This document shows positions 1 to 44,676 of a stretch of DNA of 64,000 bases, one piece after another. Numbering within the stretch: the first letter of the stretch is position 1; each line of letters begins with the position of its first letter. The notes under the pieces are model-generated. The model had not been told where the DNA came from and searched no databases. It was given only the letters and a program-made list of their open reading frames with translations. Source of the DNA: a candidate division WWE3 bacterium RIFCSPHIGHO2_01_FULL_40_23 (GTDB lineage Bacteria > Patescibacteriota > WWE3 > UBA101185 > 2-01-FULL-41-18); assembly GCA_001772615.1 (NCBI GenBank), contig MEUZ01000003.1, positions 109,698-173,697 of the forward strand, given 5' to 3'. Made by a program: the position numbers and the translations under genes.

Positions 1-655
1 GCGTTTTATCGGAGAGGTATCCCCTCGCTTTACCAGCTTTAACAACCTTCGGGATAATATCAGCCTCAAGTGAGAATGGCGCTCTTTTGCCTTTAAGAAA
101 CTCAAATATACCTTTATTTATTAAGTACACACCCCCACTTACAAGTCCGGCCACCGGATCTTCTCTATCCCCATAAAGTTTTTCAGCATAAGACTTAATT
201 TTAAAATTCTTGTCTATCTCAATACAGCTGTATCTTCTGACATCTAAAACATTACTTAAAGCTATTGAAAGAATCGGTTTTCTCGCTTTATGAAAAAGAT
301 AAAAAGCATTTAAGTTGATATTAAAAAAAGTATCCCCGTTAACAAGTAAAAAATCCTCGTCATGCGCTATGAATTCCCTCGCCTTAAGGAGTGCTCCTCC
401 TGTACCCATAGGTTTATCTTCTACTACAAACCTGTAAGTGACATCTGCTCTCTTATCTTTTCCAAGATGGGATTTAATCTGATCGGCTTTATGATACATT
501 GACAAAATAATGTCTTTGTGACCGGAAGATACAAGCCAATCAATTACATAATCAAGAAAGCTTTTTCCGGCTATAGGGGCAAGCGGTTTTGGTTTATCGG
601 AAATGACGGAAGACAACCTAGTCCCAAGTCCGCCACACAAAACCACTACCTTCAT
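1..655 (-). CDS. Sugar-phosphate nucleotidyltransferase, probably a heptose-1-phosphate guanylyl/nucleotidyltransferase of the HddC type. The N-terminal part lies in the window and the 3' end lies beyond the window start.
   Basis: The minus-strand translation starts MKVVVLCGGLGTRLSSVISDKPKPLAPIAGKSFLDYVI. This carries the GxGTRL NTP-transferase signature. Its ATG overlaps the stop of the downstream GT2 gene (ATGA). The gene sits next to gmhA. Confidence 0.7.
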   Translation of the reverse strand, partial: MKVVVLCGGLGTRLSSVISDKPKPLAPIAGKSFLDYVIDWLVSSGHKDIILSMYHKADQIKSHLGKDKRADVTYRFVVEDKPMGTGGALLKAREFIAHDEDFLLVNGDTFFNINLNAFYLFHKARKPILSIALSNVLDVRRYSCIEIDKNFKIKSYAEKLYGDREDPVAGLVSGGVYLINKGIFEFLKGKRAPFSLEADIIPKVVKAGKARGYLSDKT

Positions 656-1524
656 TCCTCTTTAATTCCCCCCTTCTCAAGTTCTGAACTCCTCTCGTCT
701 TTTCCTCCTCTTAAAATGTAAGCTAAACCCCCTAAACTTGCTGAAGCACCTTTAATTACATAAAGCAATATTAGTCCTAACCATAAATCAGGCTTTGACA
801 AGGCTTTTCTCGTAAAATAAGACCTTCTTGGAAGACTATGCATTGCGACATCCTTAGGATAATACTTTAAGCAAATAAAGTAGGACTGGCCATAGTGAAA
901 AAACCTTTTAATGTACTTTACCCACGTATTTTGTTCGTAATGATAAATGCTAAGATCAGCCCTGAACTTAACTTTTGGCTTAAATTTTAAGGTCTCTATA
1001 TATATAGCATTGTGCTCAAACATAAAGAGCTTCACCGGCCAGTCTATTTTTGAAAGTATCTTTTTTCTAAAAAATCTTGGGATAGCAGAGCCCATAAGAG
1101 GGTCATCATCTTCCAGGGAGTGAAAGATCCATTTATCATACTCAATAATCTTTTCAAGATAAGTGTTATTTAAAACTATGGACCTTTCAAAAAGGGTAAC
1201 CTCATCATACCCTCCGGTTTCGCATTCCTTTACACACTCGCTTATTGTATCTTTATCAATTGTCTGATCAGAATCAATAAAAAAAATATATACTCCTCTG
1301 CTCATATCAAAGCCAAGTTTTCTTGCTTTACCTACTGCTAATGCGTAACCGACTTTACAACCATATCTTTTAGCTATTTTTACGGTTTTATCTTTGCTAA
1401 AGCCATCTATAAGGATAATTTCCATGTTTTTATAAGACTGGCTTTTAATTGATTTCAGAGTTTTTTCCAGAGTGGCTTCGGAGTTAAAGGTGGGTATATT
1501 AACAGAAACTAGAGGTTCTTTCAT
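652..1524 (-). CDS. Family 2 glycosyltransferase (GT-A fold).
   Basis: The N-terminus reads VSVNIPTFNSEATLEKTLKSIKSQSY...EIILIDGFSKDKT, and the sequence carries a DSD(Q) DXD-like motif. Confidence 0.8.
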   Translation of the reverse strand: MKEPLVSVNIPTFNSEATLEKTLKSIKSQSYKNMEIILIDGFSKDKTVKIAKRYGCKVGYALAVGKARKLGFDMSRGVYIFFIDSDQTIDKDTISECVKECETGGYDEVTLFERSIVLNNTYLEKIIEYDKWIFHSLEDDDPLMGSAIPRFFRKKILSKIDWPVKLFMFEHNAIYIETLKFKPKVKFRADLSIYHYEQNTWVKYIKRFFHYGQSYFICLKYYPKDVAMHSLPRRSYFTRKALSKPDLWLGLILLYVIKGASASLGGLAYILRGGKDERSSELEKGGIKEE

Positions 1525-1640
1525 TTTTTAGCTCCTAAGTATTAATACATTCGGGTCGATTCCTACAAAGCTATCACTTTATGCTCCAGCTAAACTTATA
1601 TATAAAAACTCATAAGAAATCAAACCTCCAATCTTAAAGC

Positions 1641-2357
1641 TTATTTTTCGTTTTTTGCCAAGAAAGCAATATATACCGAATGGGAAGGGTCTAACTCTGC
1701 GAACTGATTTCCTATCACATTGGGGAAAGGATAATAACCTGAAACAACAGGTTTAAGATCCTTAAAACCATAAAGTAGAAGAAATTCCTTTAAAGCTCTG
1801 GAAGTAAAAACGCTTCGATGAAGCCAGAATGCATCCTTTTCTTCTCCGGAAACACTACTAAAGGGATTTCCTATACTGTGTTTCTTGATACATATATTCG
1901 TTGTACTAAAAGGTTGAAATCCAAGGAACAAAGAAGCTGTGTTATGCCATGCGGAGAGATTCTCCGTTGAAAGCAGTAGTGTTCCACCTTTCTTTAAAAC
2001 CCTTTTTATATTTATAAGAAAATTATCAACCGAAAAGAGATGCTCTATCACATTGTTACTGAAAACGAAATCAAATGTGTCATCTTTTACTCTCCAAACT
2101 TCCTTACTTACATCTTCCTTAACTATCTTTATTTTCCTCTTCCTTGCGTCTTTAATACCCGCCTCATCAATCTCCATCCCATAAACTTCTTTTGCATTAC
2201 AAGCCTTTGCGATCAAAAGCGTCTTTTCTCCTCCCCCGCATCCAACATCCAGAAACTTATGCACTTTTAATCCCAAGTTTCCAACAAATTTTTCAAGCCT
2301 TCTTACATAATTTCCCTCTGCGCTCTTAACCAGATGATTAATATAGGCGGATACCAT
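1641..2357 (-). CDS. Class I SAM-dependent methyltransferase.
   Basis: Motif I is LDVGCGGGEKT. The sequence also contains FDFVFSNNVIEHL and KKGGTLLLST. Confidence 0.75.
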   Translation of the reverse strand: MVSAYINHLVKSAEGNYVRRLEKFVGNLGLKVHKFLDVGCGGGEKTLLIAKACNAKEVYGMEIDEAGIKDARKRKIKIVKEDVSKEVWRVKDDTFDFVFSNNVIEHLFSVDNFLINIKRVLKKGGTLLLSTENLSAWHNTASLFLGFQPFSTTNICIKKHSIGNPFSSVSGEEKDAFWLHRSVFTSRALKEFLLLYGFKDLKPVVSGYYPFPNVIGNQFAELDPSHSVYIAFLAKNEK

Positions 2358-2389
2358 AATACTTAATACCTCCTAATGTTAAATAGCAT

Positions 2390-2962
2390 CTAAAAACCGG
2401 CCTCAATAATATCACAAAGAGTATGGATAATAAGGATGTGCATTTCCTGAATTCTTGCAGTATCCGAAGAAGGAACAATTAAACTAAGATCGCAAAATCC
2501 TTTAATCTTACCTCCTTTATTTCCGGTAAAAGATATTGTTTTAAGACCCAAGGAAGTTGCTTTCCTTGCCGCTTCTATAACGTTTTTAGAATTTCCACTG
2601 GTTGTAATTCCTATAAAAACATCGCCCTTCTTGCCAAAAGCCTCAACCTGTCTTGAAAATACTCTCTCAAAATCATAGTCATTTGGTATCGCAGTCATGG
2701 TAGAAGGATTTGCGGTTAAAGAAATTGCCGGCAGCGCACGCCTTTCCTTCCTGAACTTGCAAACAAGCTCCGCCGCGAAATGATTTGCATCCGAGGCACT
2801 GCCTCCGTTACCGCATATCAAAACCTTTCTACCATTCCTTAAAGCACTAACAAGAGTTCTAGATACTGCCTTAACATCAGCCGACAGCTTGACATAAGTC
2901 AACTCGTTAAGCTCCCTGGACTTGGAAAAACTGTCATCAATAAAATTTGAAACGTTACCCAT
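2390..2962 (-). CDS. gmhA: D-sedoheptulose-7-phosphate isomerase (phosphoheptose isomerase, SIS domain).
   Basis: SIS-domain signatures are present: LICGNGGSASDANHFAAEL, GITTSGNSKNVIEAA and QEMHILIIHTLCDIIE. Confidence 0.8.
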   Translation of the reverse strand: MGNVSNFIDDSFSKSRELNELTYVKLSADVKAVSRTLVSALRNGRKVLICGNGGSASDANHFAAELVCKFRKERRALPAISLTANPSTMTAIPNDYDFERVFSRQVEAFGKKGDVFIGITTSGNSKNVIEAARKATSLGLKTISFTGNKGGKIKGFCDLSLIVPSSDTARIQEMHILIIHTLCDIIEAGF

Positions 2963-3123
2963 TGAAGTATTTTAAAACATATTTTTACGTGTCAGTCCAA
3001 TCGCAGGGCTAAAAGAAAGTTTTTGACAGTTCCTTAGCAAGCTTAATTCCATAGTTTGTATTTCTATAATCTTAATCCTAAATTTTATTTTTCTTGAAAC
3101 AAGAAAATTTAAATAAAAGGCTC

Positions 3124-4806
3124 TTAATTAATGGATTTAAGGGGTGCTTCAATAGATTCTTTTTCTTTAGCTTCGGCTTCGGCACTTTCTTTAATTGACT
3201 TTTCAACAGTCTTGTCCGCCTTGCTTGGGAAGAGAGTTTTAGCAAGGGATTTAAATGCGTTAACCCAGAACTTAGGGGAGAGCACATTTACTTTTGTTTG
3301 GTTAGGATCAAAATCAAGAAGATGCCCTACAAGCTTCCAAGCGGAGTAATAAAGATACTTGATATCATCTAAAGTCCTTATTTCCAAAGCTCTTCTTAAC
3401 ATATACCTTGGGGTAAAAAATGAAGAGTACAGCTCTTGGGTCAGCTCCAGAATTTGCTCATTCGTCAAGGGGCTTTTCATAACGGCTTTTCTCATGTCAT
3501 ATTCTTCATAATCCTCCGTTAGAAGCCACCCCTTCTCCCCGCATTCTTTCCAAAGCGGAGTTCCAGGATAAGGTATAACAATTGTAGCCTGCATGGTATC
3601 AACGTAACCTTTATCAAAGCACCTCTTGGCAAGCGCAATTGTGTTTTTGGCCATTTCATATGTTTCCCATGGGTACCCAAGCATTATGGTTAAGTGGGGA
3701 TCCAGGCCTGCCTTCTTTGCCATCCTAACACCCTCCTCAATCTGATGGACTTTAACACCTTTATCAAGCTTATCTAATGTGTATTGATTTCCTGATTCCA
3801 TCCCATAAAGAATAAACCTGAAGTTTGCCTTCCCCATAAGATCATAATATTCCTGGGTAAGAGCGTTAAGCCTCATATTACAGCCGTACACCACTTTTTT
3901 GCTGTATCCGCTATCTATTAAGAGATTACAGAAAGTTTTAAGCCACGGGCCAACGGCAAGCGTACCGGCGTCATCAAAAATTTCTTTAACTCCATAATTA
4001 TCTACAACATGCTTGACTTCGGCAAAAAGCCTTTCGGGCGTAAACCTTCTGTAAGAGCCGATTTCATTAATAGTATGATCCCAAACACAAAAGGTGCACC
4101 TATTCCACCAGCAGTCTCTTCCGGAATACATATATGTTGCAGGTGTAAATCTATAATTTCCGTTAGCATAAGCGTAATACTCCCAATGAGTTAGGTCGCG
4201 ATCCACAAATGGAAGCTCATCAAGAACATGCTTTAAAACCTGCCTTCCGCTGCATGCTAAATCCAATCCATTATCCGATTTCTCAATCTTGGCCGGTTCC
4301 TGTTTTACTCTTTTATCCCCCGCTCTATACCAAAACCCACCTTCCAGTTTTTCGCCACTCGTTAGGTGGTTGAGAAGATTAACGATAAGAAAATCATAAT
4401 CTCCGCCTGCAATAATGAAATCCACCGGAGAATGGTCAAAGGATTCCTTTGGAAGGAAAGTTACATGATCACCGCACCAGACTAAAATCATTTCGGGAAA
4501 TCTCTCTTTAAGATCCTTCATAACCTTCCAATGCTGTTTTATAACAGGAGCTTTTGTCTCAACAAGAAGAAGGTCGGGTTTTTCATTTGACAGCTCATCC
4601 AACCACTCGTTATACATTTGCTTAGCCGCTATCCCATCCATCCACACAACATCGTAACCGTGCTTCTTCAAGTTAGAGGCTGCGTAAGCCGGTACCATAG
4701 GATAGATATAAGTTTCAGCGTTAAAATATTGAAATTGTCTATTTTGTGATAGAAGAGGAACTCCTTTATCCGTTTCAATAGGCGGGTATCCAACGGCTAT
4801 TTTCAT
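3124..4806 (-). CDS. Radical-SAM enzyme with an N-terminal B12-binding domain. It may be a C-methyltransferase or glycan-modifying enzyme. It has an atypical Cys motif.
   Basis: The N-terminal Rossmann-like B12-binding region is followed by SGRDCWWNRCTFCVWD (Cx4Cx2C) and a TIM-barrel-like core. The C-terminus is a low-complexity, E/K-rich tail. Confidence 0.6.
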   Translation of the reverse strand: MKIAVGYPPIETDKGVPLLSQNRQFQYFNAETYIYPMVPAYAASNLKKHGYDVVWMDGIAAKQMYNEWLDELSNEKPDLLLVETKAPVIKQHWKVMKDLKERFPEMILVWCGDHVTFLPKESFDHSPVDFIIAGGDYDFLIVNLLNHLTSGEKLEGGFWYRAGDKRVKQEPAKIEKSDNGLDLACSGRQVLKHVLDELPFVDRDLTHWEYYAYANGNYRFTPATYMYSGRDCWWNRCTFCVWDHTINEIGSYRRFTPERLFAEVKHVVDNYGVKEIFDDAGTLAVGPWLKTFCNLLIDSGYSKKVVYGCNMRLNALTQEYYDLMGKANFRFILYGMESGNQYTLDKLDKGVKVHQIEEGVRMAKKAGLDPHLTIMLGYPWETYEMAKNTIALAKRCFDKGYVDTMQATIVIPYPGTPLWKECGEKGWLLTEDYEEYDMRKAVMKSPLTNEQILELTQELYSSFFTPRYMLRRALEIRTLDDIKYLYYSAWKLVGHLLDFDPNQTKVNVLSPKFWVNAFKSLAKTLFPSKADKTVEKSIKESAEAEAKEKESIEAPLKSIN

Positions 4807-4881
4807 TATTACAGCATGGTACTATAGATACCTATCTATGTCAAAAAAAGTTGTTATACCGGGTCTTACTAATAGTATCTT

Positions 4882-5850
4882 TTAGAGTATCTCACAGAAG
4901 GCCTCTTTTAAAACCTTAAGTTTCTCCTCGTTATTAAAAACTTGGGAAGAGTCCGCTATACTTAACCCCATCAGGTCTTTTTTAGAAAGCAAGGAAAGCA
5001 GACTCTGAAGCTCAAGGATGCCCATACTATCCAATTCTTTTGAGGTTAATATTGAAGGGTAAAGTACACAAGAACTATAGTATTCAAGCATTTCATCCAC
5101 AAAGGAAAGATCTTTCTCATTAAGTTTGAAATAAAGCATCGGACAGATAAAATCAAGCTTAGAAGATAGCTCAAAAGCATTCTGACCAAGAATTCTTGTT
5201 ATTGCGCTCCCGTACTCTTTATCAGTCCAGGGAATTATAAAAGCGCCAAGTTTCACAGAAGATATCCCGGAAATCACTTCACTTGCGCTTTCTACAAAAG
5301 AGGTTATGGTCTTAGTTTTAAACTCAAGCCATTCAAGATAAAATTGACCATCAATGGCTTCTACAAGCTCCTTTCTACTTTCAGGAAGCTTTTCATTATT
5401 AAGGTAACCTTCCCTAAACTTATTAATACAGACCTCACAGTAACATGTATCAAAAATGATAGGTTCAGAAGGGATCCAGTATGTTGGGTAGTGAAGTGAG
5501 GAAAGAATTATTGATCTGATATTCTTATTTAAAGAAAGTTCCTTAATTCTCTCAAGCTTTGATCTTCTTACATCCTCATTATTAGGGCATACTCCATAAT
5601 ACCAGTCTTTACTGCAGTCTCTTCCTTCGGCTTCTAAAGGAGCCGCCGAAGGAAATTCGGATAAAAGCTCACCCCCTGAAAAGACTTCCACTGAAACATC
5701 TATATTAAGTCCATCGTTCACTCTCAAAACAGATGAGATAAAAGTTTCATCAAGATTTTTCTCATCCACAATTACCGAAGATAAACAAAGCTCATCCAAA
5801 AGCCTCAAAAAAGCGGGATCTGAATTTAAAATCTGGGACGATTTTTCCAT
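4882..5850 (-). CDS. Hypothetical protein of 322 aa with unknown function. It is co-oriented with the radical-SAM enzyme and the ferredoxin.
   Basis: This is a long ORF with no recognisable motif. It contains a CYCEVC cysteine cluster. It is tightly packed between a ferredoxin gene and the radical-SAM gene. Confidence 0.5.
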   Translation of the reverse strand: MEKSSQILNSDPAFLRLLDELCLSSVIVDEKNLDETFISSVLRVNDGLNIDVSVEVFSGGELLSEFPSAAPLEAEGRDCSKDWYYGVCPNNEDVRRSKLERIKELSLNKNIRSIILSSLHYPTYWIPSEPIIFDTCYCEVCINKFREGYLNNEKLPESRKELVEAIDGQFYLEWLEFKTKTITSFVESASEVISGISSVKLGAFIIPWTDKEYGSAITRILGQNAFELSSKLDFICPMLYFKLNEKDLSFVDEMLEYYSSCVLYPSILTSKELDSMGILELQSLLSLLSKKDLMGLSIADSSQVFNNEEKLKVLKEAFCEIL

Positions 5851-6083
5851 TAGCCTTCTTTCTCCTCCGGCCAGATCCTCTTTCCAGTTTCCTCATCATC
5901 AAGAATAATAGCAAGAGTCGGACATGACTTTGCCGCCGCAATGATGGCCTGCACGCTGTCACCAGGAATATCTTTTACGATGGCTATATTCTCATTATCC
6001 AGCTCAAAGGTGTTCGGAGCTTGTACCACACATGTACCTGCTCCTATGCATAAATCTCTAATTACAGTTATTTTAACCTTCAT
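5850..6083 (-). CDS. Small single-cluster ferredoxin.
   Basis: The sequence MKVKITVIRDLCIGAGTCV...AAKSCPTLAI shows the Cx2Gx2C...CP ferredoxin pattern. Confidence 0.65.
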   Translation of the reverse strand: MKVKITVIRDLCIGAGTCVVQAPNTFELDNENIAIVKDIPGDSVQAIIAAAKSCPTLAIILDDEETGKRIWPEEKEG

Positions 6084-6084
6084 T

Positions 6085-7101
6085 TTACCCCTCTATATAT
6101 TTGCCTTCTTTTTTACTCACAGCTTTTAAGTTTAGCTTTGGTTTTTTAAAAAGTCCATACAAAAAATAGAAGCCATAAACCAGATGAGTCAGAAAAACAC
6201 CCATTATAAAATAAAATGTAAGTAAAATGTTCTTTTCTTTACTAAAAACTTTTACTGCCTCATTTAAGAGAAGGATTACATACAAACCGACCACGGAAAA
6301 GTAAAAATAAAAAAAGAACCTGCTAAAGAAAAAAGTTAATGGTCCAAAAAATAAGCCTAAGATAAAAAGCGAGGGCACAAAATACTGAAGTTTTCTTGAA
6401 TTTTTAGGAAATATTTTGGCAAATTGCCCTCTGTGCATACCATATCTTGAAACCTGCTTTAAATGAGGCAAAAAAACAGTCCTTCTATGATGAAAAACAA
6501 CAACTAACGGGTCATATAAAATCTTCTTTCCAGTCTCTTCCAATAAATCAAGGCAAAGTTTAGTATCCTCTCCAGGCCAAAATTCACTTTTAAAACCACC
6601 CACCTTCTTAAAATCCGAAAAAAGAACAAAAAGATTTACCGAAGGGTAATCATCAACATACATCCTTTTACCCACCACATGTCTATGGTAGGTCCCTCCT
6701 CCTGCAAGAGCTGAAGACAAAATTTCACCTGAAACTTTTTCCAAAAAACCTTCATTCGGAGGAGTAATTGATGGCCCACCCACTCCACATAAATTTTTAT
6801 CCGAAAAGTCGGAAGTTGCCTTCTCAAGCCAATCGCTTCTGGGATATGCATCATCGTCAAGAAAAGCAAGAATTTTACCCGAAGCGTACCTTAACGCGAG
6901 GTTTCTTTTATCTGAAGGCCCGACTTTTCCAGAAGGGATCATTTTAAAGTTTTTTGGTAAACCTCTAAAAATCTCTTCTTCATCAGTTATTATAAGAACT
7001 TCATAATTACTATATTTAAGCTTTTTAAGATGAGGAATAGCGTCCCTAAGATAGTTGGTAATTGTTCTTACCGGTATGATAATTGATACCTTTGGCTTCA
7101 T
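6085..7101 (-). CDS. Family 2 glycosyltransferase with C-terminal transmembrane helices.
   Basis: The N-terminus reads KVSIIIPVRTITNYL...EVLIITDEEE, and the sequence contains LDDDAYP. The C-terminal 90 aa are hydrophobic. Confidence 0.75.
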   Translation of the reverse strand: MKPKVSIIIPVRTITNYLRDAIPHLKKLKYSNYEVLIITDEEEIFRGLPKNFKMIPSGKVGPSDKRNLALRYASGKILAFLDDDAYPRSDWLEKATSDFSDKNLCGVGGPSITPPNEGFLEKVSGEILSSALAGGGTYHRHVVGKRMYVDDYPSVNLFVLFSDFKKVGGFKSEFWPGEDTKLCLDLLEETGKKILYDPLVVVFHHRRTVFLPHLKQVSRYGMHRGQFAKIFPKNSRKLQYFVPSLFILGLFFGPLTFFFSRFFFYFYFSVVGLYVILLLNEAVKVFSKEKNILLTFYFIMGVFLTHLVYGFYFLYGLFKKPKLNLKAVSKKEGKYIEG

Positions 7102-7904
7102 TTTCTCATCCCGCTTTTAACCCCACTTAACTTATGTACTTTCATCCAGTTTCTCTTATTTGAATCCTCATAATACTTAAGAAAGTGGAGCCTATAGAAT
7201 ATGGCTAGGGTATCAATAAAAACACCTCTTATATCAGGGTTTAAAAAAAGAAACGCGCTTTTTTTAAAGGAAGTATTCTCAAAATCCCAGTTAATTTCAA
7301 CAGGCGCTTCAAAAATTCTTCTAAACCCCAGATGATTAGCAACAGCGAGAGATTCTATATCAAACGCAAATCGTTTAACTACAAGTCTTGGAAAAACACG
7401 GTCAACAACTTCTCTTCTGTAAACTTTAAGTCCGGTTTGAGTGTCCCCTACTCGCACCCCAAAAAGGGCCTTAACAATTAAATGGTAACCAAAACTGTAA
7501 ATCCTTCTAAAAAGCGGATATTCGTGGATTTTGGAAACAGGGTGCCTTTTGCTTCCGACAATAATATCCGCCCGGTACCACTCCATATGTTCAAGAACCA
7601 TTGAAATCCCATTGGCATTTATGTCCATCCCCGCATCAATAAAAATTACTATATCACCGGAACATAAACTTGCCCCATACCTTATAGCATAACCCTTCCC
7701 TTTATTTATCCTGTAACCTATAACCCTAATATTTCTTTTCTCAACTCTCTTTGCTTCATCAAAAGTTTTGTCTGCAAAGCCGTCAACAACAACAATAATC
7801 TCAAATCTGTACCTTGTCTGGGACATAACTTTATGAATATTTTGTATGTCCTTCTTAATTGTCTTCTCCTGCTTGTAAGACGGAACGATTACCGATACCA
7901 ACAT
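7098..7904 (-). CDS. Family 2 glycosyltransferase. The start is chosen at the internal Met, so the gene is shorter than the track ORF.
   Basis: The N-terminus reads MLVSVIVPSYKQEKTI...EIIVVVDGFADKT. The track ORF 7098..7931 overlaps the upstream flippase by 77 nt, and the later ATG reduces that overlap. Confidence 0.7.
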   Translation of the reverse strand: MLVSVIVPSYKQEKTIKKDIQNIHKVMSQTRYRFEIIVVVDGFADKTFDEAKRVEKRNIRVIGYRINKGKGYAIRYGASLCSGDIVIFIDAGMDINANGISMVLEHMEWYRADIIVGSKRHPVSKIHEYPLFRRIYSFGYHLIVKALFGVRVGDTQTGLKVYRREVVDRVFPRLVVKRFAFDIESLAVANHLGFRRIFEAPVEINWDFENTSFKKSAFLFLNPDIRGVFIDTLAIFYRLHFLKYYEDSNKRNWMKVHKLSGVKSGMRK

Positions 7905-9147
7905 ATCCCATATAGTACAACACAATCGCAAGAAGCAGTAAAAGGGAGATAGAGATATTTATGATCACAACTTCAAGCAGTGATTCGTGGTAAAGGCTTA
8001 TTAACACAAACTGCAGAAAAACAGCAGGGAATTGAAATAAAAAGACTTTGCCTTTATTTATGGCGAGAAAAAACATAACCATAAAATTTATCATTACGTA
8101 AAGGCCCATAAATACTGAAAAGGCGGGTATTAGAAATGAAGCCTTAAGAAATCTCTCTCCAAAAAGAAGGCCGACAAAAAAATCAGGAAAGGTAAAAAAC
8201 ATCAATACGGAAACTAAGGCAAGCGTGAGCTGGATTATAAAAAAGGGCTTTAAGCGCTTTGAAACATCTCCACCCTTGGCATATGCTTCCGAAACCTGCG
8301 GAAACATGACAACCGAAACCGAACCTGCACCAAAAAGGATCACCTTCCCAACAGTAACGGAAACCAAGTAAAGCCCCGCCGATACACCATCAAAAAAATG
8401 CTTCACGAGAATTACATCTACATTATTTAAAAGAACCATTCCTATATTAATCAAAAACGACGCAACGCCAAACTGAAGAAGTTTTCCGTATTCACCGTTC
8501 ATACCATTTCTCCACCCCCCAAAAAGACTCTCCCGCAAAAATAAAAGCCCCAAAAGAAATGAAAGTATCGTTGAAAAGCTCATCCCAAGGTACACACCTG
8601 AAACCCCTAACCCCAAAAACGCGAAGAAGGAAGGGATCGCAAATCTTAAAACAGATGCCGCTACCGAAAGAAAAGAAAAAGCTTTAAACCGTGAAAGACC
8701 CTGAAGATAAGAAAACGGTGGAATAATTAGAAAGGACACACCAAGGTAAATGGAAAAAAACAAAACCATATCGGATTTCTCAAGGTTTAAGTAAGATAAA
8801 ACAAAACTTTGTGAAAATACTACAAGAAGTGAGACAAGAATACCTATAGTGGATACAATTCCTATAAGTCTTGGGAGAAGACTTTTTATAGCCTCATACT
8901 CCCCTTTTGCTTTAAGGTCCGAAACCATTTTAATAACGGAAGTAATAAAAGCATTTATAGGAATGGAAAAAACGATTGATAAAGACAACAGGACACCAAA
9001 TTCTCCATATTCACTTATTGTTAAAAACCTTCCTAAAGAAAGCTGGAGCAAATAACTGAAAATACTGGATACAAATAGACTTGCAGTGACAATAAAACTT
9101 TTATAAACATCATCGTTTTTTAGAAGTAACCGCACCCTTTCAATCAT
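7855..9147 (-). CDS. Polysaccharide-biosynthesis flippase of the Wzx/MOP superfamily.
   Basis: This is a 430-aa polytopic membrane protein with about 12 hydrophobic segments. It lies between glycosyltransferase genes. Confidence 0.6.
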   Translation of the reverse strand: MIERVRLLLKNDDVYKSFIVTASLFVSSIFSYLLQLSLGRFLTISEYGEFGVLLSLSIVFSIPINAFITSVIKMVSDLKAKGEYEAIKSLLPRLIGIVSTIGILVSLLVVFSQSFVLSYLNLEKSDMVLFFSIYLGVSFLIIPPFSYLQGLSRFKAFSFLSVAASVLRFAIPSFFAFLGLGVSGVYLGMSFSTILSFLLGLLFLRESLFGGWRNGMNGEYGKLLQFGVASFLINIGMVLLNNVDVILVKHFFDGVSAGLYLVSVTVGKVILFGAGSVSVVMFPQVSEAYAKGGDVSKRLKPFFIIQLTLALVSVLMFFTFPDFFVGLLFGERFLKASFLIPAFSVFMGLYVMINFMVMFFLAINKGKVFLFQFPAVFLQFVLISLYHESLLEVVIINISISLLLLLAIVLYYMGYVGIGNRSVLQAGEDN

Positions 9148-10769
9148 CTTTCCTTCTTATAAACGTTATAAACTGGGACCGAATCTATATTTATAGTTCC
9201 CTCAAACTTTAAGTTATATTTCATCTTAGTGGAAGATGTATCCTCCCAAACTGGATAAACAAAAAAGTTAGCCCTCTCTGCTTCCGGTCCGAGAGACTCA
9301 AGAACAGCCCATCCTTTTATTTCCCTTATAAAAGGCCAAATTTGAGTATAGTATTTTTCTGGAAATGCGACAGTCAGCTTATCATCAATTCTTCTAGAGT
9401 AAAGAAGCTTACTAAGAGTCTCATTATTCTCAAAAGTCTTATATTCTCCTTGTTCCCTAATGTTATTAAAATATGAGATTATTTCGGGCACGCCAATCAT
9501 CCATTTAGGTTCAAGAACAAAAATACCTCTTTTTAACCCCCCGCCCAGAACACTATAGTAAGAGAAATAATCGGGATGGATTTTCAGATATAAAATGAAC
9601 TGTGGAATAAAAATTAAAAAAAAGATGAGATAAGCTAATTTTTTAAACTTCTCATGAAGATAAGTTAAAAGATAATCATAAAAAAATGAGGAAGCTAAGG
9701 ATAAACCCATAATGGAGGGAAGAATATATCTATCCAGTTTTTTTGAAGGAATGGAGATTTCAATGAAATAAAGAAAAGAAAAGAACAGGCTATAAAGTGC
9801 AAACTTCTTTTTATCCTCGCTTATATTAGCTTTAACAAAAAGCCACCCGATAAAGCCTAGAATTAAATATAAAGAAGTTTTGTACATCAGTACAACGGGA
9901 TAAAACGTAAAGCCGGGATCTGACGTAAGAGAACCAAAATAAATCTGATCATGCCCCCCTTCAACTCCTACGGTAAAGATGCCTGTAAAATAAGTGCTAA
10001 GTGCTTCCCAAGGTTTCACCCACATCCCCGGCCATAACAACACAAACCAAAGCAAAACAATTAAAAACCACCTAAAATAAGAACTCACCATAGATTTAAA
10101 AGTTGTTTTTTTAAAAATAACCTCTACAAAGAGCATAAAAAGAACAAACGGAAGAATCATAAGAGAAGAACTCTTCGTTAAAACGGCGAGCGAGGCAAAA
10201 AAACCTGAAACAAAAAGACTCTTAAAGCCTTTTTGAAAGTTCACGTAATAGTAGAACCAGACAAAAGAAACAACCATAAATGTTGTCATTAAACCTTCAA
10301 GATGCAAAACTTTGGTTAAAGCTATATAAAAAGGCTCTAAAGAAAAAACAGATATTAAAATAAAAGTGGTTTTTACTCCAAACATTTTCCTTAGAGCATA
10401 AAAAAGAAAGGAGATTGAAACTCCCGTAGCAAAGACAACAAAGAATTTTTGAACAAGATCAAGCTCAAAAATAGTTCTTAGTTCATTATTTGGAGGATTG
10501 CTTCCTGTAAAAACCCTGTAGTAAAGGTTATAAACTTTGATGGAAGCGCTTCCAATTATCATTAAGCTAACGCCTGGATGGTATGTTTGAATCGTTTTTT
10601 CAAACTGACCTCCAAATAAACCCCCGCCAAAATCATATATTCTTGCCTTCCATCTCCAAACATCCGTATTAAAATTATCATGGCCTAAGGAGGGAGCCCG
10701 CGACAATATAAATAAAAGGGCAACAAGTATTTCAAATTTTATTTTTCTTATTTTATCCAAAGTTTTCAT
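9144..10769 (-). CDS. GT-C fold membrane glycosyltransferase of the PMT_2/ArnT-like (GT39/GT83-like) type.
   Basis: This is a 541-aa polytopic membrane protein with an N-terminal loop (LGHDNFNTDVWRW). It is paralogous to its neighbours. Confidence 0.55.
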   Translation of the reverse strand: MKTLDKIRKIKFEILVALLFILSRAPSLGHDNFNTDVWRWKARIYDFGGGLFGGQFEKTIQTYHPGVSLMIIGSASIKVYNLYYRVFTGSNPPNNELRTIFELDLVQKFFVVFATGVSISFLFYALRKMFGVKTTFILISVFSLEPFYIALTKVLHLEGLMTTFMVVSFVWFYYYVNFQKGFKSLFVSGFFASLAVLTKSSSLMILPFVLFMLFVEVIFKKTTFKSMVSSYFRWFLIVLLWFVLLWPGMWVKPWEALSTYFTGIFTVGVEGGHDQIYFGSLTSDPGFTFYPVVLMYKTSLYLILGFIGWLFVKANISEDKKKFALYSLFFSFLYFIEISIPSKKLDRYILPSIMGLSLASSFFYDYLLTYLHEKFKKLAYLIFFLIFIPQFILYLKIHPDYFSYYSVLGGGLKRGIFVLEPKWMIGVPEIISYFNNIREQGEYKTFENNETLSKLLYSRRIDDKLTVAFPEKYYTQIWPFIREIKGWAVLESLGPEAERANFFVYPVWEDTSSTKMKYNLKFEGTINIDSVPVYNVYKKER

Positions 10770-12304
10770 TTCGCGTTAACATCAAGAGAAAAAACATACA
10801 CATTAGGACCAAACCTCTGCTCGCTTCTCTCAAAAGACTTTATCAAAGTTAAAAACTTTTTCACATTTTTATATTCCTCTGTATCAGAAAGCCTATCATT
10901 AGTGGCTATCGTTAAGTACGTCGCAGTTTCATTAACACTTATGTAAGAAAGGGACTTTATTCTCCTGTTCTTGTTGTCTATTTTTTCCATAACAGGGTCA
11001 AGATCCCTTCCGGAGTATATAACTTCCTTATCCAAGGGAATGTTTTCACCCGCCCATTCATAAAAAAGATTTCTGGTATCTTTTTCGGATAGCTTCACTG
11101 CATACTTAATTGAGTAAACAAAGGGTGGGAGAAAGACCACCGAAAACAAAATTAAAGAGAGAAGTTTATGTGAAATAAACATCTTCTTTGAAAGAACAAG
11201 ATTGTAGAATAAATTTGCCAAATAACCCACCACTAAGCTCACAAATGGGAAAACAAGCATATAATAATGTATCCTATTTTTTGAAAAACCTGTGATATAA
11301 AGGAAATAAAATAAGCCAGGAAGATAAATAAAAATCTTATCACTAGTCCGTTTAGTAAAAATGAAATAAATAAAGAAAAGTTCAAAAAGGAGAAGGAAAG
11401 AATACCCAAAATCTGAAATAATTTTTGTTGTTAGAACCTTCGATAGCTGAACGAAATACTGATCGGTACTCACCTTTCCCACATTCTCAAACTGCCAGAA
11501 AGCCCCTTTAGGTCCGTCATCCCTGGTGAAAGTATCAAAGTCAAAAAGAGCATATGGGGTACCTACAAAAAAAGAAGTCAAAGAGACAAAAGCGGCAAGC
11601 AGAAGGTTGGCTGACGCCTTTTTAAAACCGTCACCTAGCCTTAAGAGTTCATGGGTTTTCAAATATAAAATATAAGCTAAGAAAATAACAAATACCGAAA
11701 ATCCTCCGTTATATTTAGTTGAAGCAGAAAGACCTGCAAATAAAGCGGCTAAAACATACCATTTCCTTTTCCCTTCTAGCATTATTAATGAAGAAAAATA
11801 AACGGAAAGACTAAACCAGAAGGTCATGGGAACATCAATGAGTGCAAAATGCGAGTTATATGCATGATATGGAAACAAGGTTATGGCAAGAGCTGATAAA
11901 AGCCCAACCCTCTCATTAAAAAGCTTTTTACCTGTGAGAAAAACAGGAATTGCAGTAAAAGCCCCCAGGGCTGCATTAAATATCCTTGAAGCAAGATAAA
12001 AAACAAGCGGGTCTCTCCATAAAATAGGCATCAAATTTGAAATAAAGGGTTTTAAACCAAGAACCTGAAAGGCACCTCTAACAACATATATAAGCATATA
12101 AAGAAAAAAGTTTAGGTAAAAATGAAGGTGCGGCCAATCAAAATGCTTGGGATTTGATTCAAACCTTATACCCGTCGCGGTTCTCACAAGCGCGGGCTCA
12201 TCTACACTATAAATAAAAGGAAAACCATAACTTATTCCATATAATCTTAAGAAAAGCCCTAATAATAATATCAATAAAAGAGGTTTACTCACCTTTTTTA
12301 ACAT
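10766..12304 (-). CDS. GT-C fold membrane glycosyltransferase of the PMT_2/ArnT-like type.
   Basis: A DEP motif sits in the first periplasmic loop (FIYSVDEPALVRTATG). The protein has about 12 TM helices. Confidence 0.6.
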   Translation of the reverse strand: MLKKVSKPLLLILLLGLFLRLYGISYGFPFIYSVDEPALVRTATGIRFESNPKHFDWPHLHFYLNFFLYMLIYVVRGAFQVLGLKPFISNLMPILWRDPLVFYLASRIFNAALGAFTAIPVFLTGKKLFNERVGLLSALAITLFPYHAYNSHFALIDVPMTFWFSLSVYFSSLIMLEGKRKWYVLAALFAGLSASTKYNGGFSVFVIFLAYILYLKTHELLRLGDGFKKASANLLLAAFVSLTSFFVGTPYALFDFDTFTRDDGPKGAFWQFENVGKVSTDQYFVQLSKVLTTKIISDFGYSFLLLFELFFIYFIFTKRTSDKIFIYLPGLFYFLYITGFSKNRIHYYMLVFPFVSLVVGYLANLFYNLVLSKKMFISHKLLSLILFSVVFLPPFVYSIKYAVKLSEKDTRNLFYEWAGENIPLDKEVIYSGRDLDPVMEKIDNKNRRIKSLSYISVNETATYLTIATNDRLSDTEEYKNVKKFLTLIKSFERSEQRFGPNVYVFSLDVNAK

Positions 12305-13829
12305 AAAAATTCCAGAAATTAATCCCCGCTATTTTAATCGTTTTGTCATACACGAATTTTCCTTTAGTTTTATCGGGGGCTATCTCATCACTATCCAAAA
12401 CCAAAATATCATAATTATGAGCACCGTATACCCTAGCATCAAAGACCATTGAGTTAGGATAAATTGTAGACATGGCCTTTCTGTCAACAAACCCCACCCT
12501 TACAAATCCATAGTTTTTTCTTATAAAATCCCTCACCTCAAAAATACCTATACCGAATGACTTTTGACCTATTACCCGATCGGCTACCCTTGGCCCTCCA
12601 AAAAGAGGACTATTATAAACAAAATAATAAGGAAAATACTGAACTAAAGGAATAATATTTATAACGACCAGCAAAAGCGTCAAGGCTGTTTTCACTGGTT
12701 TTCTTTTCACGTTTGAAAAAAAGCTTATTAGAAAATATGAAACCGAAATTATAATAATCGGATATAGCGGCAAAAGATATCTGTCTATTTTTTTATCAGC
12801 TATCTCAACTGCTAAAAAATAAAATAGAAAAAACAAGGAAAGAAAATATAAAATCCCCGGAGCTAGTAAAAGTGGAGGCTTCTTCTTTAAAATAACAGCT
12901 CTAAAAAGATAAACAAGAATTCCTAATGAAGAAAGTAATAATAAAGGAGAAAGCTTATATAAAAAAACAATTGGGTAATAAAAAGGTCCTGGGTTTTCCG
13001 TAACAACTCCGAAAAATTTCTCCTCATGCCCTTTTTCAACAACAAGCTTGCTTCCGGAGTAAATCTTTTTAAAAACCCTTACCGGATCATCCCATAAGGC
13101 TGGGAGTATCAAATATCCTGAAAAAAAGAAGAAAAATACATAAGAAAACAAAACAATTAAAAACTTTTTGAGCGTTATCTTTTTAAAGATATAAAGAAGA
13201 AAGGAAAAGGAAGTAAGAAAAAAGATCGCCAGTATAGAAATATTTTTTGTCCAAAATGAAAAGCCTATAAATAAAGAGGATAATATAAGCCATCCATAAG
13301 AATTTTTTTTGTACCACAAATAATAAGAAACCAAGCCGTTTATAAGAAGCAATGACAAAAGTGCATCCATGTGCAAGAGCCTTGCGTTCCCAAGAAAAAA
13401 AGGCTCAACTGTAAGGAAAAACCCCGCAAGAAAAGAAGTTTCTAGGGTAAAAATCTTGCTAAGGAGAAAAACTAAAATTAAAGTTAAGATAAGTAGGGAA
13501 ACATTAAGAGTGTACTTTGCAACGAAATGAAAGGCCTCATAGGAGAATCTGTCATACCCCACTCTTGGATTGGATAAACGCTTAAGAATTTCAACGGGAG
13601 CACCTGTGATAAGCATTAGAGTAACCCCTGGATGATAGTGTTGGTATGTTCTTCTGAAATCCCTGCTTTTAATCGCGTCTATATACTGCTCTGATCTAAA
13701 ATGCCAATTAAGGGCGTCAGGGTTCATTTCATCATTACCAAGCCTTGGTACATGGGTAATAAAATAAACAAAAGCAAAAACAATGGAATAGATAAAAACT
13801 TTATTTTTCAATAGCATAAAAAACCCCAC
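12285..13829 (-). CDS. GT-C fold membrane glycosyltransferase of the PMT_2/ArnT-like type.
   Basis: A DE motif is present in HVPRLGNDEMNPD. It is a polytopic membrane protein. Confidence 0.6.
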   Translation of the reverse strand: MGFFMLLKNKVFIYSIVFAFVYFITHVPRLGNDEMNPDALNWHFRSEQYIDAIKSRDFRRTYQHYHPGVTLMLITGAPVEILKRLSNPRVGYDRFSYEAFHFVAKYTLNVSLLILTLILVFLLSKIFTLETSFLAGFFLTVEPFFLGNARLLHMDALLSLLLINGLVSYYLWYKKNSYGWLILSSLFIGFSFWTKNISILAIFFLTSFSFLLYIFKKITLKKFLIVLFSYVFFFFFSGYLILPALWDDPVRVFKKIYSGSKLVVEKGHEEKFFGVVTENPGPFYYPIVFLYKLSPLLLLSSLGILVYLFRAVILKKKPPLLLAPGILYFLSLFFLFYFLAVEIADKKIDRYLLPLYPIIIISVSYFLISFFSNVKRKPVKTALTLLLVVINIIPLVQYFPYYFVYNSPLFGGPRVADRVIGQKSFGIGIFEVRDFIRKNYGFVRVGFVDRKAMSTIYPNSMVFDARVYGAHNYDILVLDSDEIAPDKTKGKFVYDKTIKIAGINFWNFYVKKGE

Positions 13830-14691
13830 CCAGAAGACTTACTAAAAGCCTTATAAGATGATAAACGATAGATGCCGAAATGGCTCCTTCAAGCGAAACT
13901 CCCACCTGCAAGAAAAGAAGCCCGTAGAGAGCATCCTGAACCCCAAAAGAATTCTGGGAGGGTATGAAAAAACTCGCGAGTATTATCACTGGGAAGGCAA
14001 AAAAGGAAAACCCTAAAGGAATAGGAAATCCTAGTGAAACAAAAATAAAATGCTGCGTAAGGATTGAAAATACCTGAACAAAAATAGAAGTTATAAAGGC
14101 GTAAATTAAAACTCCCTTCTGCCCTTTATATACTTTTAACGCGTCTGAAAACTCTTTTAACTTTCTAATCTTCAAAGAAAGCTTATCAATAACCTTAAAG
14201 AATACAAAAATTGCAACCCAAAACCCGAAAAACATCAAAAAGCCATAGATTTTAAAAACCCCAATCAAACCATAAGTAGCAAATAAACTTAAAATTACAA
14301 CACCGCTGAATCTTTCCATAAACGTTGCGGCAAAGGCTTTAGAATGATCTTTTATATATCGTCCAAGCCTAAAAGCCTTATAAACATCTCCCCCAATACT
14401 AGTTGGTAGAAAATTATTAAAAAATGCTCCTATAAAATAAAGTTTAACCAAAGTAAAAAGTTTAACATGCTCTGTTCCATCAAAAATACTTAACAGCTTT
14501 CTCCACCTTAAAGAAGAAACCACATAATTTAAAATGATAAAGGAAAGAATTATAGGTAAATAAAAAAAGTCAATCCCTTTAATGCTTTCTATAAACAATC
14601 TTTTATCAATCTTATAAAAGATTAAAGCTAACAAAAAGATACTGACAAAAACTTTTATCAACGTTTTTTTAAAATTTTCGGTTTCCTTCAT
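13801..14691 (-). CDS. Flippase-like membrane protein with a lysylphosphatidylglycerol-synthase-TM-like (UPF0104) region.
   Basis: The sequence FFNNFLPTSIGGDVYKAFRLG is typical of the family. The protein has about 8 TM segments. Confidence 0.5.
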   Translation of the reverse strand: MKETENFKKTLIKVFVSIFLLALIFYKIDKRLFIESIKGIDFFYLPIILSFIILNYVVSSLRWRKLLSIFDGTEHVKLFTLVKLYFIGAFFNNFLPTSIGGDVYKAFRLGRYIKDHSKAFAATFMERFSGVVILSLFATYGLIGVFKIYGFLMFFGFWVAIFVFFKVIDKLSLKIRKLKEFSDALKVYKGQKGVLIYAFITSIFVQVFSILTQHFIFVSLGFPIPLGFSFFAFPVIILASFFIPSQNSFGVQDALYGLLFLQVGVSLEGAISASIVYHLIRLLVSLLGGVFYAIEK

Positions 14692-43702: not shown

Positions 43703-44168
43703 AAAACACTTCCAAAATCTTATATTTAAGTTTAACTACTGGAGTTGTGACTTCTATGACGTCTCCAACTTTTGACCCCAAAAGAGCCTGTCCGACTGGA
43801 GACTCGTTGGAAATTAAATTTTTTATAGGATTTGCCTCTACACTTCCGACAATTTTAAACTTGTCAACCTCTCCGTCACATTCAACTTTAACCATTGCCC
43901 CGATAGAAATAAAGTCAGCGGCTATCTTTGCTTTTTTCTCATCTATTATCTTGTAATCTGAAAGTATACTTTCAAGCTCCGAAATCCTTCTTTCAAGAAG
44001 GGTTTGCTTTTCAAGCTCTAGATCATATTGAATATTATCTTCATAACCGCCAGATTCAATGGCGGCTTTAATTCTTTCGGCGGCTTTTTGCCTTCCGTTT
44101 GCTATGAGGTCGCTATATTCCTCCTGTAATTTGCTTAATCCCTGCTTTGTAAGATATGTGTTTCCCAT
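43695..44168 (-). CDS. GreA/GreB-family paralog of 157 aa. Its coiled-coil tip is divergent: the acidic residue corresponding to D41 is replaced by Gly.
   Basis: GGYEDNIQYDLELEKQ aligns to GDISENAEYESARERQ of the neighbouring canonical GreA. The C-terminal FKBP-like domain is conserved (VGQALLGSKVGDVIEV). Confidence 0.7.
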   Translation of the reverse strand: MGNTYLTKQGLSKLQEEYSDLIANGRQKAAERIKAAIESGGYEDNIQYDLELEKQTLLERRISELESILSDYKIIDEKKAKIAADFISIGAMVKVECDGEVDKFKIVGSVEANPIKNLISNESPVGQALLGSKVGDVIEVTTPVVKLKYKILEVFYE

Positions 44169-44211: not shown

Positions 44212-44676
44212 TTACTTGATGCTAAGGATTGTATACGTAAGCTTTCCAACGGGAGCTTCCACTTCAACTTTATCTCCAATTCTTTTTCCCATTAAAGCTA
44301 GTCCAAGGGGAGACTCATGTGAAATTTTCCTCTCCATTGGGTTTGCCTCAACTGCCCCGACTATATAAAACTCTTCTTCCCCGCCTTCTACATGAACTTT
44401 AACAACACACCCGACATCCACAACATCACTGTTTTTATTTTCTTTTATGGTTTCAACGTTTTTTAATATCTCCTCAAGCTCTGTAATTCTACCTTCAATA
44501 AACGCTTGTCTTTCACGCGCGGATTCATACTCGGCATTTTCGGAAATATCGCCCATTTCTCTTGCGGACTTTATTCTTTCCGCGATCTTTGAGCGCTCTA
44601 CATCCACCAGATTCTTATATTCTTTTTTAATTTCTTCAAAACCTTCTTTTGTAAGGTATACTTTACTCTTTTTCAT
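44212..44676 (-). CDS. greA: Transcription elongation factor GreA.
   Basis: The canonical tip is MGDISENAEYESARERQ, and the C-terminal domain reads PLGLALMGKRIGDKVEVEAP. Confidence 0.85.
   Translation of the reverse strand: MKKSKVYLTKEGFEEIKKEYKNLVDVERSKIAERIKSAREMGDISENAEYESARERQAFIEGRITELEEILKNVETIKENKNSDVVDVGCVVKVHVEGGEEEFYIVGAVEANPMERKISHESPLGLALMGKRIGDKVEVEAPVGKLTYTILSIK

Follow-up and report, generated by a model that had tools for sequence, protein, structure and literature searches.

A 64,000-nt stretch of the genome of candidate division WWE3 bacterium RIFCSPHIGHO2_01_FULL_40_23 (Patescibacteria, or Candidate Phyla Radiation, CPR), referred to here as the window, encodes a 560-aa radical S-adenosylmethionine (SAM) enzyme, hereafter rSAM. 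With somewhat better than even confidence, we favor the view that rSAM is part of a cassette coupled to family-2 glycosyltransferases (GT2s), which radically modifies a lipid-linked sugar for the cell surface. The cassette is a variant among the known sugar- or lipid-modifying radical-SAM systems with class-B-like enzymes, and appears, from family-level matches only, to lie in a surface-glycan locus of the three-component type, with a polyprenyl-phosphate sugar synthase, a flippase and GT-C glycosyltransferases. An earlier note on this DNA had proposed that rSAM, a ferredoxin and a 322-aa protein form a triad that could C-methylate, by B12-dependent chemistry, or otherwise radically modify a nucleoside diphosphate (NDP)-heptose or a lipid-linked glycan. 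Our reading shifts from this triad to a GT2-coupled rSAM cassette that would remodel a lipid-linked sugar, and that is widespread in uncultivated bacteria and archaea. The note had also called the module undescribed, and we found no publication on it; nor did literature searches yield a description of a cassette of a glycosyltransferase and a B12-type radical-SAM enzyme for CPR, DPANN or polyprenyl-linked sugars.

Open reading frame (ORF) prediction and Pfam/NCBIfam scans show that every gene from position 1 to approximately 27.7 kb lies on the minus strand, forming one large glycan locus. The order of transcription around rSAM is three GT-C glycosyltransferases, a Wzx-like flippase, two GT2s (GT2c, then GT2b), the ferredoxin, the 322-aa protein, rSAM, gmhA, a methyltransferase, a third GT2 (GT2a) and a sugar nucleotidyltransferase (Table 1). 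The ORFs, lengths, coordinates and CWWNRCTFC motif given in the earlier note are correct (the minus-strand ORFs were verified), as are the flanking gmhA, nucleotidyltransferase, methyltransferase and GT2. The 560-aa and 322-aa proteins are each 100% identical to a protein of the WWE3 bacterium named above. The 322-aa gene, which was said to follow rSAM and the ferredoxin, sits between them in the order of transcription.

Gene neighborhoods were examined in a sample of 80 CPR loci from GTDB species representatives, in which the rSAM orthologues are 64–85% identical to the window protein and the informative taxon labels are WWE3, Microgenomates, Roizmanbacteria, Collierbacteria and Woesebacteria. 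Neighbors were compared with the window proteins, and upstream genes were counted on the same strand, with the loci having enough upstream sequence as denominators. GT2b, treated as background in the earlier note, is a near-invariant partner, present upstream of rSAM in 66 of 69 loci. The ferredoxin is upstream of rSAM in 66 of 78 loci, mostly directly adjacent, which upholds the proposed linkage of the two. GT2c is found upstream of GT2b in 61/65 loci and a Wzx-like flippase upstream in 51/65, and the full order Wzx, GT2c, GT2b, ferredoxin, rSAM occurs in 42 of 57 loci, 6 of which also contain the 322-aa gene. Overall, the 322-aa gene is present in approximately 10 of the 80 loci. Within 5 kb downstream of rSAM, GT2a occurs in 41/80 loci and gmhA in 2/80; a homologue of the window methyltransferase is downstream in 15/80, and a homologue of the first GT-C listed in Table 1 upstream in 20/57.

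These counts identify the unit as a GT2-GT2-ferredoxin-rSAM cassette, not the rSAM-ferredoxin-322-aa triad, and lend no support to heptose specificity. The conserved unit consists of the Wzx-like flippase, GT2c, GT2b, the ferredoxin and rSAM, often followed by GT2a. It sits at the edge of a strain-variable sugar-supply region, with gmhA and the methyltransferase belonging to the variable part. Median identity to the orthologues is highest in the module for rSAM (67%), followed by the ferredoxin (51%), GT2c (50%), GT2b (41%) and Wzx (29%). The rSAM orthologues always lie within glycan loci; occurrence mainly outside such loci, which the earlier note had named as evidence that would count against it, was not seen. 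Many GTDB metagenome-assembled genomes (L014, L017, L019, L022, L025, L027-L029 and others) are labelled 'uncultured Gammaproteobacteria', 'Pseudomonadales' or 'Saccharibacteria'. Their rSAMs are 65–72% identical and their gene order is WWE3/Microgenomates-like, and these taxon labels look unreliable.

A wider family emerged from a search of 1.84 billion cluster representatives and from a profile search. Its rSAMs are approximately 485 aa long, 39–55% identical to the window rSAM, and all annotated generically only. The hosts include Omnitrophota, Latescibacterota, Goldbacteria, Methanoperedens, Nano-, Woese- and Pacearchaeota and Hodarchaeota, and so extend to DPANN and Asgard archaea. Of 80 metagenomic loci of this family (26–64% GC), 58 were usable for the immediate upstream gene, and homologues were counted over 84 wider-family loci. 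GT2b lies immediately upstream of rSAM in 32/58 loci, mostly with a 4-nt start/stop overlap. Other upstream genes encode a WecG/TagA enzyme of glycosyltransferase family 26 (GT26), a polyprenyl-phosphate glycosylphosphotransferase (Bac_transf), or a DUF362 protein that carries a ferredoxin domain. GT2b, WecG/TagA and Bac_transf enzymes all form lipid-linked sugars. Homologues of GT2c and GT2a are present in 36/84 and 31/84 loci, and homologues of the CPR ferredoxin and of gmhA in 0/84. The ferredoxin is therefore a CPR-specific addition, and the heptose link drawn in the earlier note proves incidental.

Individual loci illustrate how the pairing varies. A Latescibacterota genome contains a stand-alone GT2-rSAM pair. 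A Methanoperedens locus reads Wzx, GT2, GT2, rSAM, GT2, DegT aminotransferase, epimerase and a second B12-type radical-SAM enzyme, and in a Nanoarchaeota locus the GT2 and PMT_2 genes are interspersed with several rSAMs of this kind. Relatives with 28–31% identity include natural fusions (P0271, P0274 and P0233), namely GT2, B12-type radical-SAM and GT4 in one polypeptide (1383 aa), radical-SAM with GT2 (874 aa), and radical-SAM with GT4 (856 aa). Two or three rSAM paralogues are present in several wider-family loci. Five proteins (P0147, P0149, P0151, P0152, P0158) are 35–38% identical and of full length, have lost all three cluster Cys residues, and may be dead partner subunits. In one metagenomic locus, an ORF for a LAGLIDADG/NUMOD3 homing endonuclease (L162:1311-2396) lies between GT2b and rSAM.

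Judged by its sequence, rSAM is a genuine radical-SAM enzyme. It matches the Pfam family Radical_SAM (PF04055) at 52.5 bits, against a cutoff of 29.5, and the B12-binding family at 22.8 bits, under the cutoff of 32.1. The CWWNRCTFC motif spans residues 232–240 and provides the cluster ligands C232, C237 and C240 in a CX4CX2C arrangement, with a one-residue insertion relative to the canonical CX3CX2C in alignments to HpnJ (CRSRCTFC), the homologue from Lawsonia, and TokK. None of the three Cys residues varies across 81 CPR orthologues, nor across the 121 aligned sequences that represent the wider family. The spacing, whose conservation the earlier note had left to be checked, is CX4CX2C in 120/120 CPR homologues; among 120 wider-family sequences, the first interval is CX4 in 113, CX7 in 5, CX9 in 1 and CX3 in 1. 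Lack of the SAM-binding motifs would have spoken against the note's assignment, and these motifs, FDDAG (277–281), YGMESG (333–338) and GYPWE (377–381), are kept along with the Cys triad in the alignment of 81 orthologues, where one third of rSAM positions are at least 98% conserved. E83-T84-K85-x-P87 in the Rossmann domain is also invariant.

An AlphaFold (AF2) model of rSAM built from 121 sequences (predicted local distance difference test score, pLDDT, 92.4; predicted template modelling score, pTM, 0.91) predicts a five-stranded N-terminal Rossmann domain resembling B12-binding domains, a radical-SAM barrel and, at the C terminus, a helical region. Structure searches gave AprD4 (PDB 6FD2) as the closest match, followed by TsrM, MgmA, CysS, OxsB and TokK. 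The ranking of NCBIfam models differs: HpnJ scores 151.6 bits (cutoff 577.6) and BchE 106.9, methylase models reach at most 63, at least 88 bits below HpnJ, and AprD4 scores 37.8. No curated NCBIfam model covers the rSAM family, and no close solved structure was found in the profile and structure searches. AprD4 has the same fold and functions without binding cobalamin (PMC12931638), and cobalamin dependence of rSAM is therefore not a given.

Membership in three named families was considered and rejected. The name BchE (TIGR02026), which JGI annotation gives to several homologues, is contradicted by a score of 106.9 bits against a cutoff of 481, and by the occurrence of these proteins in glycan loci of non-phototrophic CPR and DPANN lineages. 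HpnJ (TIGR03471) is excluded by its equivalog cutoff and by an identity of 29% to Mycetohabitans HpnJ. For AprD4 (NF033070) the cutoff is 500 bits, and the likeness is structural only. The one-residue-longer cluster loop is shared with OxsB, a non-methylase that catalyzes a ring contraction and whose RGCDYSRCTFC is in register with RDCWWNRCTFC of rSAM (PMC9204698), and with GenD1, a sugar C-methylase (PMC4340712). Since OxsB and GenD1 differ in chemistry, CX4CX2C marks the rSAM family and does not predict its reaction. We had considered it as a marker of non-methylase chemistry, and dropped this idea because GenD1 carries the same motif.

Two further features of rSAM were observed. Residues 8–36 form a 30-residue loop past the first Rossmann strand, which is near-invariant from bacteria to archaea (YPP...G.P.L.QNRQFQ.F...P). 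It sits at the position of the DxHxxG cobalamin loop of MetH-type domains, and its equivalent in HpnJ is looser. In addition, P0127, P0130 and P0131 (probably also P0128 and P0129), which are 665–972 aa long, contain an insertion exactly at the third cluster Cys (C240 in the window). With slashes at its ends, it reads ...CWWGKCTF/CFPPETII...HSYTAGFFAVKN/CSW.... These boundaries are intein-like, and would place an intein within the cluster motif.

In GT2b, a GT-A domain in which the DDD and GED motifs are conserved is followed by approximately three C-terminal transmembrane helices (motif conservation and hydropathy). Its NCBIfam match, at 98 bits, is MftF-like and below cutoff. For GT2c, the best NCBIfam matches are PgfS, PpgS and ArnC-type models, all below cutoff, and the protein resembles polyprenyl-phosphate sugar synthases (it is also AglJ-like). 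BacA/UppP is encoded in the window, which indicates that the organism uses undecaprenyl phosphate. The operon-like array of GT2c, flippase and PMT_2 GT-C enzymes recalls the three-component systems GtrABC and ArnC/ArnT and the pentofuranose systems (PMC11127046). The present locus differs in having a second, membrane-anchored GT2, GT2b, tightly coupled to rSAM, and no described three-component system includes a radical-SAM enzyme or a ferredoxin.

The ferredoxin, of single-cluster type, matches the Pfam families Fer4_15 (41.7 bits, cutoff 22.4) and Fer4_13 (38.5 bits, cutoff 24.5). It contains three Cys residues in the pattern CxxAxxC...CP, the motif of 3Fe-4S-type ferredoxins, and in 60 of 67 orthologues the Cys residues number exactly three and Ala occupies the second ligand position. 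It is presumed to be the electron donor to the rSAM cluster.

The 322-aa protein, which the earlier note assigned to no recognizable family, gives a weak DUF4015/GH42 signal (GH42, glycoside hydrolase family 42). It is a predicted cytoplasmic protein with only 5 homologues in a 5.8-billion-protein database. The window protein itself scores 18.1 bits against a Pfam cutoff of 27, and all its scores are below the Pfam cutoffs; among 14 family members, 6 match DUF4015 (PF13200) and 5 match Glyco_hydro_42. C88, C136, C138 and C141 are invariant in the family alignment (CP...DTCYCxxC). A comparison of the family profile with the PDB matched the GH42 structures 9ta3 and 3tts over the CPN...CYCxxC zinc-site region, with which the Cys4 pattern CP...(D)xCYCxxC aligns. 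We had first regarded the four Cys residues as an Fe-S site linked to the ferredoxin, and gave this up for a GH42-type zinc site after this alignment. Strands and helices alternate in its predicted secondary structure, and a single-sequence AF2 model reached a pLDDT of only 36. From this weak family signal, the protein may be a TIM barrel of a divergent GH42/DUF4015-like type that carries the Cys4 motif of a zinc site. Unlike GH42 enzymes, it has only about 320 residues and lacks the trimerization and C-terminal domains. Where GH42 enzymes have their acid/base Glu, the aligned residue varies (E, D, N, H) across the family, which makes hydrolase activity doubtful. The gene is accessory and fast-evolving, and is restricted to a WWE3 subclade, where it lies between the ferredoxin and rSAM. 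A hidden Markov model of the family detected no remote relatives in the remaining ORFs located between ferredoxin and rSAM, and a 273-aa protein and other inserted genes at this position are unrelated.

In the pathway that we favor, membrane-anchored GT2b, together with GT2c, would load a sugar, on the cytoplasmic side, onto a carrier or acceptor lipid of the membrane. The three-Cys ferredoxin would reduce the rSAM [4Fe-4S] cluster held by the CX4CX2C loop, and the cluster would cleave SAM to give a 5'-deoxyadenosyl radical. This radical would abstract a hydrogen from the sugar that GT2b had placed on the lipid, and remodel that sugar before flipping; the GT-C enzymes would then use the flipped product in decorating the envelope. 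There is precedent for the remodelling of sugars on polyprenyl-phosphate carriers by auxiliary enzymes before GT-C transfer (PMC11127046). Translational coupling, three classes of partner that form lipid-linked sugars, and fusions to glycosyltransferase domains point jointly to a glycosyl intermediate as the most probable substrate of rSAM, with its lipid-linked form the likeliest. GT2b probably makes this lipid-linked substrate, and the three GT-C enzymes encoded upstream of the flippase gene are likely the extracytoplasmic users of the lipid-linked donor. AprD4, the top structural neighbor, also acts on a sugar ring, which supports sugar chemistry.

The type of chemistry performed on such a lipid-linked sugar can be ranked only weakly. 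The first candidate, though short of an even chance, is a non-methylating rearrangement, for example ring contraction to a carbocycle by analogy with the proposal for HpnJ. C-methylation is less likely, and the same holds for a third group comprising AprD4-like diol dehydration and other reactions. Rearrangement is placed first because HpnJ is the best sequence match, has a sugar-on-lipid substrate, and is encoded directly after hpnI. Genetics implicates HpnJ in the conversion of bacteriohopanetetrol-glucosamine to the cyclitol ether, the substrate being a membrane lipid's sugar head group (PMC13459092). The match of rSAM to HpnJ is near full length, and the two proteins have a common two-domain layout and a similar long loop past the first strand (SRYQA in HpnJ, QNRQFQ in rSAM). 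The hpnJ gene is directly downstream of the gene for HpnI, a membrane lipid glycosyltransferase, as rSAM follows a glycosyltransferase gene. In contrast to the HpnJ system, hpnI, hpnK, squalene-hopene cyclase and hopanoid genes are all missing from the 28-kb rSAM locus, the window rSAM has a dedicated ferredoxin, and the host organisms belong to CPR, DPANN and further uncultivated lineages.

Several observations weigh against the proposed remodelling of a lipid-linked sugar, or against the parallel with HpnJ. A gene other than GT2b lies upstream in 26 of the 58 wider-family loci. Relatives of approximately 28% identity occur in disparate contexts (among hopanoid genes, in a heptose-type locus of Lawsonia, and in a Clostridium cluster for a ribosomally made and post-translationally modified peptide, RiPP), and chemistry is not transferable at that distance. 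The HpnJ score is far below the family cutoff, at 29% identity and with canonical CX3CX2C in HpnJ; BLASTP detected no similarity between GT2b and HpnI, and no HpnK-like deacetylase is conserved at the cassette loci. Ferredoxins of the 3Fe-4S type are not obviously low enough in potential to reduce a radical-SAM cluster. We know of no member of the family that has been studied biochemically or genetically. The CX4CX2C loop gives no guidance either, being found in both the non-methylase OxsB (PMC9204698) and the C-methylase GenD1 (PMC4340712).

The strongest competitor, which we nevertheless consider unlikely, is a cobalamin-dependent C-methylation of the lipid-linked sugar produced by GT2b or GT2c, comparable to the action of MoeK5 on a lipid-linked sugar. 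It differs from the favored pathway in the radical outcome only, and shares all of the evidence from GT2 linkage. In alignments, a conserved G112-D113-H114 of rSAM occupies the position of the GG-type strand-end motif of TokK and MgmA, and HpnJ groups with Fom3 and MoeK5 in a published sequence similarity network (PMC9204698). The margin of the methylase models below HpnJ points away from methylation, as does AprD4, where the same fold is active without cobalamin.

Quite improbable, in our estimate, is a cobalamin-independent reaction on the lipid-linked intermediate, in the form of an AprD4-like 1,2-diol dehydration or another elimination or epimerization that yields a deoxy or keto sugar. 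AprD4, from apramycin biosynthesis, shares the order of an N-terminal Rossmann domain and a radical-SAM barrel, and its substrate is a sugar ring, on which it acts without cobalamin (PMC12931638). Genes for short-chain epimerases/dehydratases are often found downstream of rSAM. However, identity between the two proteins is 14–16%, the aligned AprD4 segment CPYPCRFYC has another Cys spacing, and the NCBIfam score is 37.8 bits against 500. AprD4 acts on a soluble pseudodisaccharide with the reductase AprD3, in actinomycete antibiotic biosynthesis, whereas no AprD3-like reductase partner is conserved at the rSAM loci and none accompanies the stand-alone GT2-rSAM pair. For HpnJ no structure has been solved, which keeps it out of the structural ranking.

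The C-methylation of an NDP-heptose by the triad, as proposed in the earlier note, appears very unlikely. In the window, gmhA, the methyltransferase, the GT2 and the nucleotidyltransferase do lie directly downstream of rSAM, most characterized class B enzymes are methylases, and one of them, the sugar C-methylase GenD1, has the CX4CX2C spacing (PMC4340712). A further point in favor is a relative of rSAM with 28% identity on a Lawsonia plasmid, beside genes for a SIS (GmhA-like) protein, a GHMP kinase, a HAD hydrolase and methyltransferases. Against it, gmhA is near rSAM in only 2/80 CPR and 0/84 wider-family loci, the scanned window ORFs include neither an HddA-type kinase nor a GmhB, and the B12-binding match of rSAM is below the Pfam cutoff. 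To our knowledge, Patescibacteria are not known as cobalamin makers, which also counts against this model. B12-dependent methylation is not favored by the nearest relatives of rSAM, since the families closest in sequence, HpnJ and BchE, are not methylases (PMC9204698), and the top structural match, AprD4, works without cobalamin (PMC12931638).

The Lawsonia locus merits a separate description. Plasmid NZ_CP107057 of Lawsonia intracellularis contains a glycan locus (L081, 2455-16192) with two GT2s, GalE, two DUF2304 proteins, the SIS protein and the B12-type radical-SAM enzyme. A second radical-SAM enzyme and a further GT2 are also encoded there, along with six ORFs for class I methyltransferases, a HAD-IIIA hydrolase and the GHMP kinase. 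The locus looks like a heavily methylated heptose pathway tied to a radical-SAM enzyme, in a pathogen, and echoes the earlier heptose idea.

Least probable of all is a non-sugar target (a polyprenyl or other lipid tail, a protein or a peptide), with glycosyltransferase adjacency reflecting a shared envelope function only: lipid tails are modified by the class B-like HpnP, HpnR and glycerol dialkyl glycerol tetraether (GDGT) methylases (PMC13459092) and one 28%-identical relative lies in a RiPP-like cluster, but start/stop overlap with sugar transferase genes and fusions to glycosyltransferase domains point to a glycosyl product, and no conserved precursor-peptide or PqqD-like gene was found near the CPR or wider-family members.

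Returning to the GT2-coupled remodelling of a lipid-linked sugar, a broader proposal can be put forward, tentatively and as rather unlikely in its full extent. The pair of a membrane GT2 and a 'DCWWxxCTFC' rSAM, widespread in CPR, DPANN, Asgard, Omnitrophota and Latescibacterota, may equip a membrane lipid or lipid-linked glycan with a sugar rearranged by radical chemistry, such as a ring-contracted carbocycle held by a linkage that resists hydrolysis, and its rSAM may be cobalamin-free despite the class-B-like fold. If true, this would add a new envelope building block common to ultra-small, host-dependent prokaryotes. CPR and DPANN organisms have minimal genomes, poorly understood envelopes and a dependence on hosts. 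The 64–85% identity of rSAM across WWE3 and Microgenomates, well above that of its neighbors, the coupling to glycosyltransferases from bacteria to archaea, and the putative inteins at the third cluster Cys suggest an important envelope component. The rSAMs form a large, uncurated radical-SAM subfamily between HpnJ, by sequence, and AprD4, by structure, of which the two-gene GT2-rSAM pair provides a small, directly testable system.

The predicted genes of the cassette and its surroundings are listed in Table 1.

Table 1. Predicted genes around rSAM in the window, in order of transcription.
Feature	Position	Strand	Basis of assignment
Three consecutive GT-C (PMT/PMT_2, ArnT-like) membrane glycosyltransferases	9144-13829 (9144-10769, 10766-12304, 12285-13829)	-	Pfam PMT, PMT_2
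Wzx/MATE-like polysaccharide flippase	7855-9147	-	Pfam Polysacc_synt_3, Polysacc_synt, above cutoff
GT2c, soluble family-2 glycosyltransferase	7098-7931	-	Pfam Glycos_transf_2, 80.8 bits
GT2b, membrane-anchored family-2 glycosyltransferase	6085-7101	-	Pfam Glycos_transf_2, Glyco_trans_2_3
Ferredoxin, 77 aa	5850-6083	-	Pfam Fer4_15, Fer4_13, above cutoffs
322-aa accessory protein	4882-5850	-	Weak DUF4015/GH42 signal
Radical-SAM enzyme (rSAM), 560 aa	3124-4806	-	Pfam Radical_SAM, 52.5 bits
GmhA, sedoheptulose-7-phosphate isomerase, 190 aa	2390-2962	-	TIGR00441, 219.9 bits, above cutoff of 209.45
Class I SAM-dependent methyltransferase	1641-2357	-	Pfam Methyltransf_11, _23, _31
GT2a, third family-2 glycosyltransferase	652-1524	-	Pfam Glycos_transf_2, 83.4 bits
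Sugar-1-phosphate nucleotidyltransferase (HddC/RmlA-like), cut by left window edge	1-655	-	Pfam NTP_transferase, 99.8 bits

Among the three GT-C enzymes, the Pfam match is above cutoff for the middle one (10766-12304) and weak for the other two. A further Polysacc_synt flippase is encoded at 14688-16133 and a further PMT_2 GT-C at 16130-17563. The translation of the nucleotidyltransferase at the left edge starts MKVVVLCGGLGTRL. An LPG_synthase_TM (flippase-like) membrane protein is encoded at 13801-14691 (133.9 bits); in Mycetohabitans this domain recurs in a protein encoded after hpnI-hpnJ-hpnK, which may be a coincidence. A 163-aa ORF at 23243-23734 matches the N-terminal part only of NAD-dependent epimerase/dehydratase models, and may be a truncated or split gene within the glycan locus.

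A scan of positions 1-9500 for promoters and terminators gave no excess over shuffled sequence (31 promoter-like matches vs 24.8 ± 5.8, and 5 terminator-like matches vs 8.0 ± 3.1). The best promoter-like match of the region, TTGACA-17-TACCAT, is on the minus strand at 4816-4844, in the 75-nt gap 5' of the rSAM start. Elsewhere in the window, tandem paralogues of the GreA/GreB family are encoded at 43695-44168 and 44212-44676.

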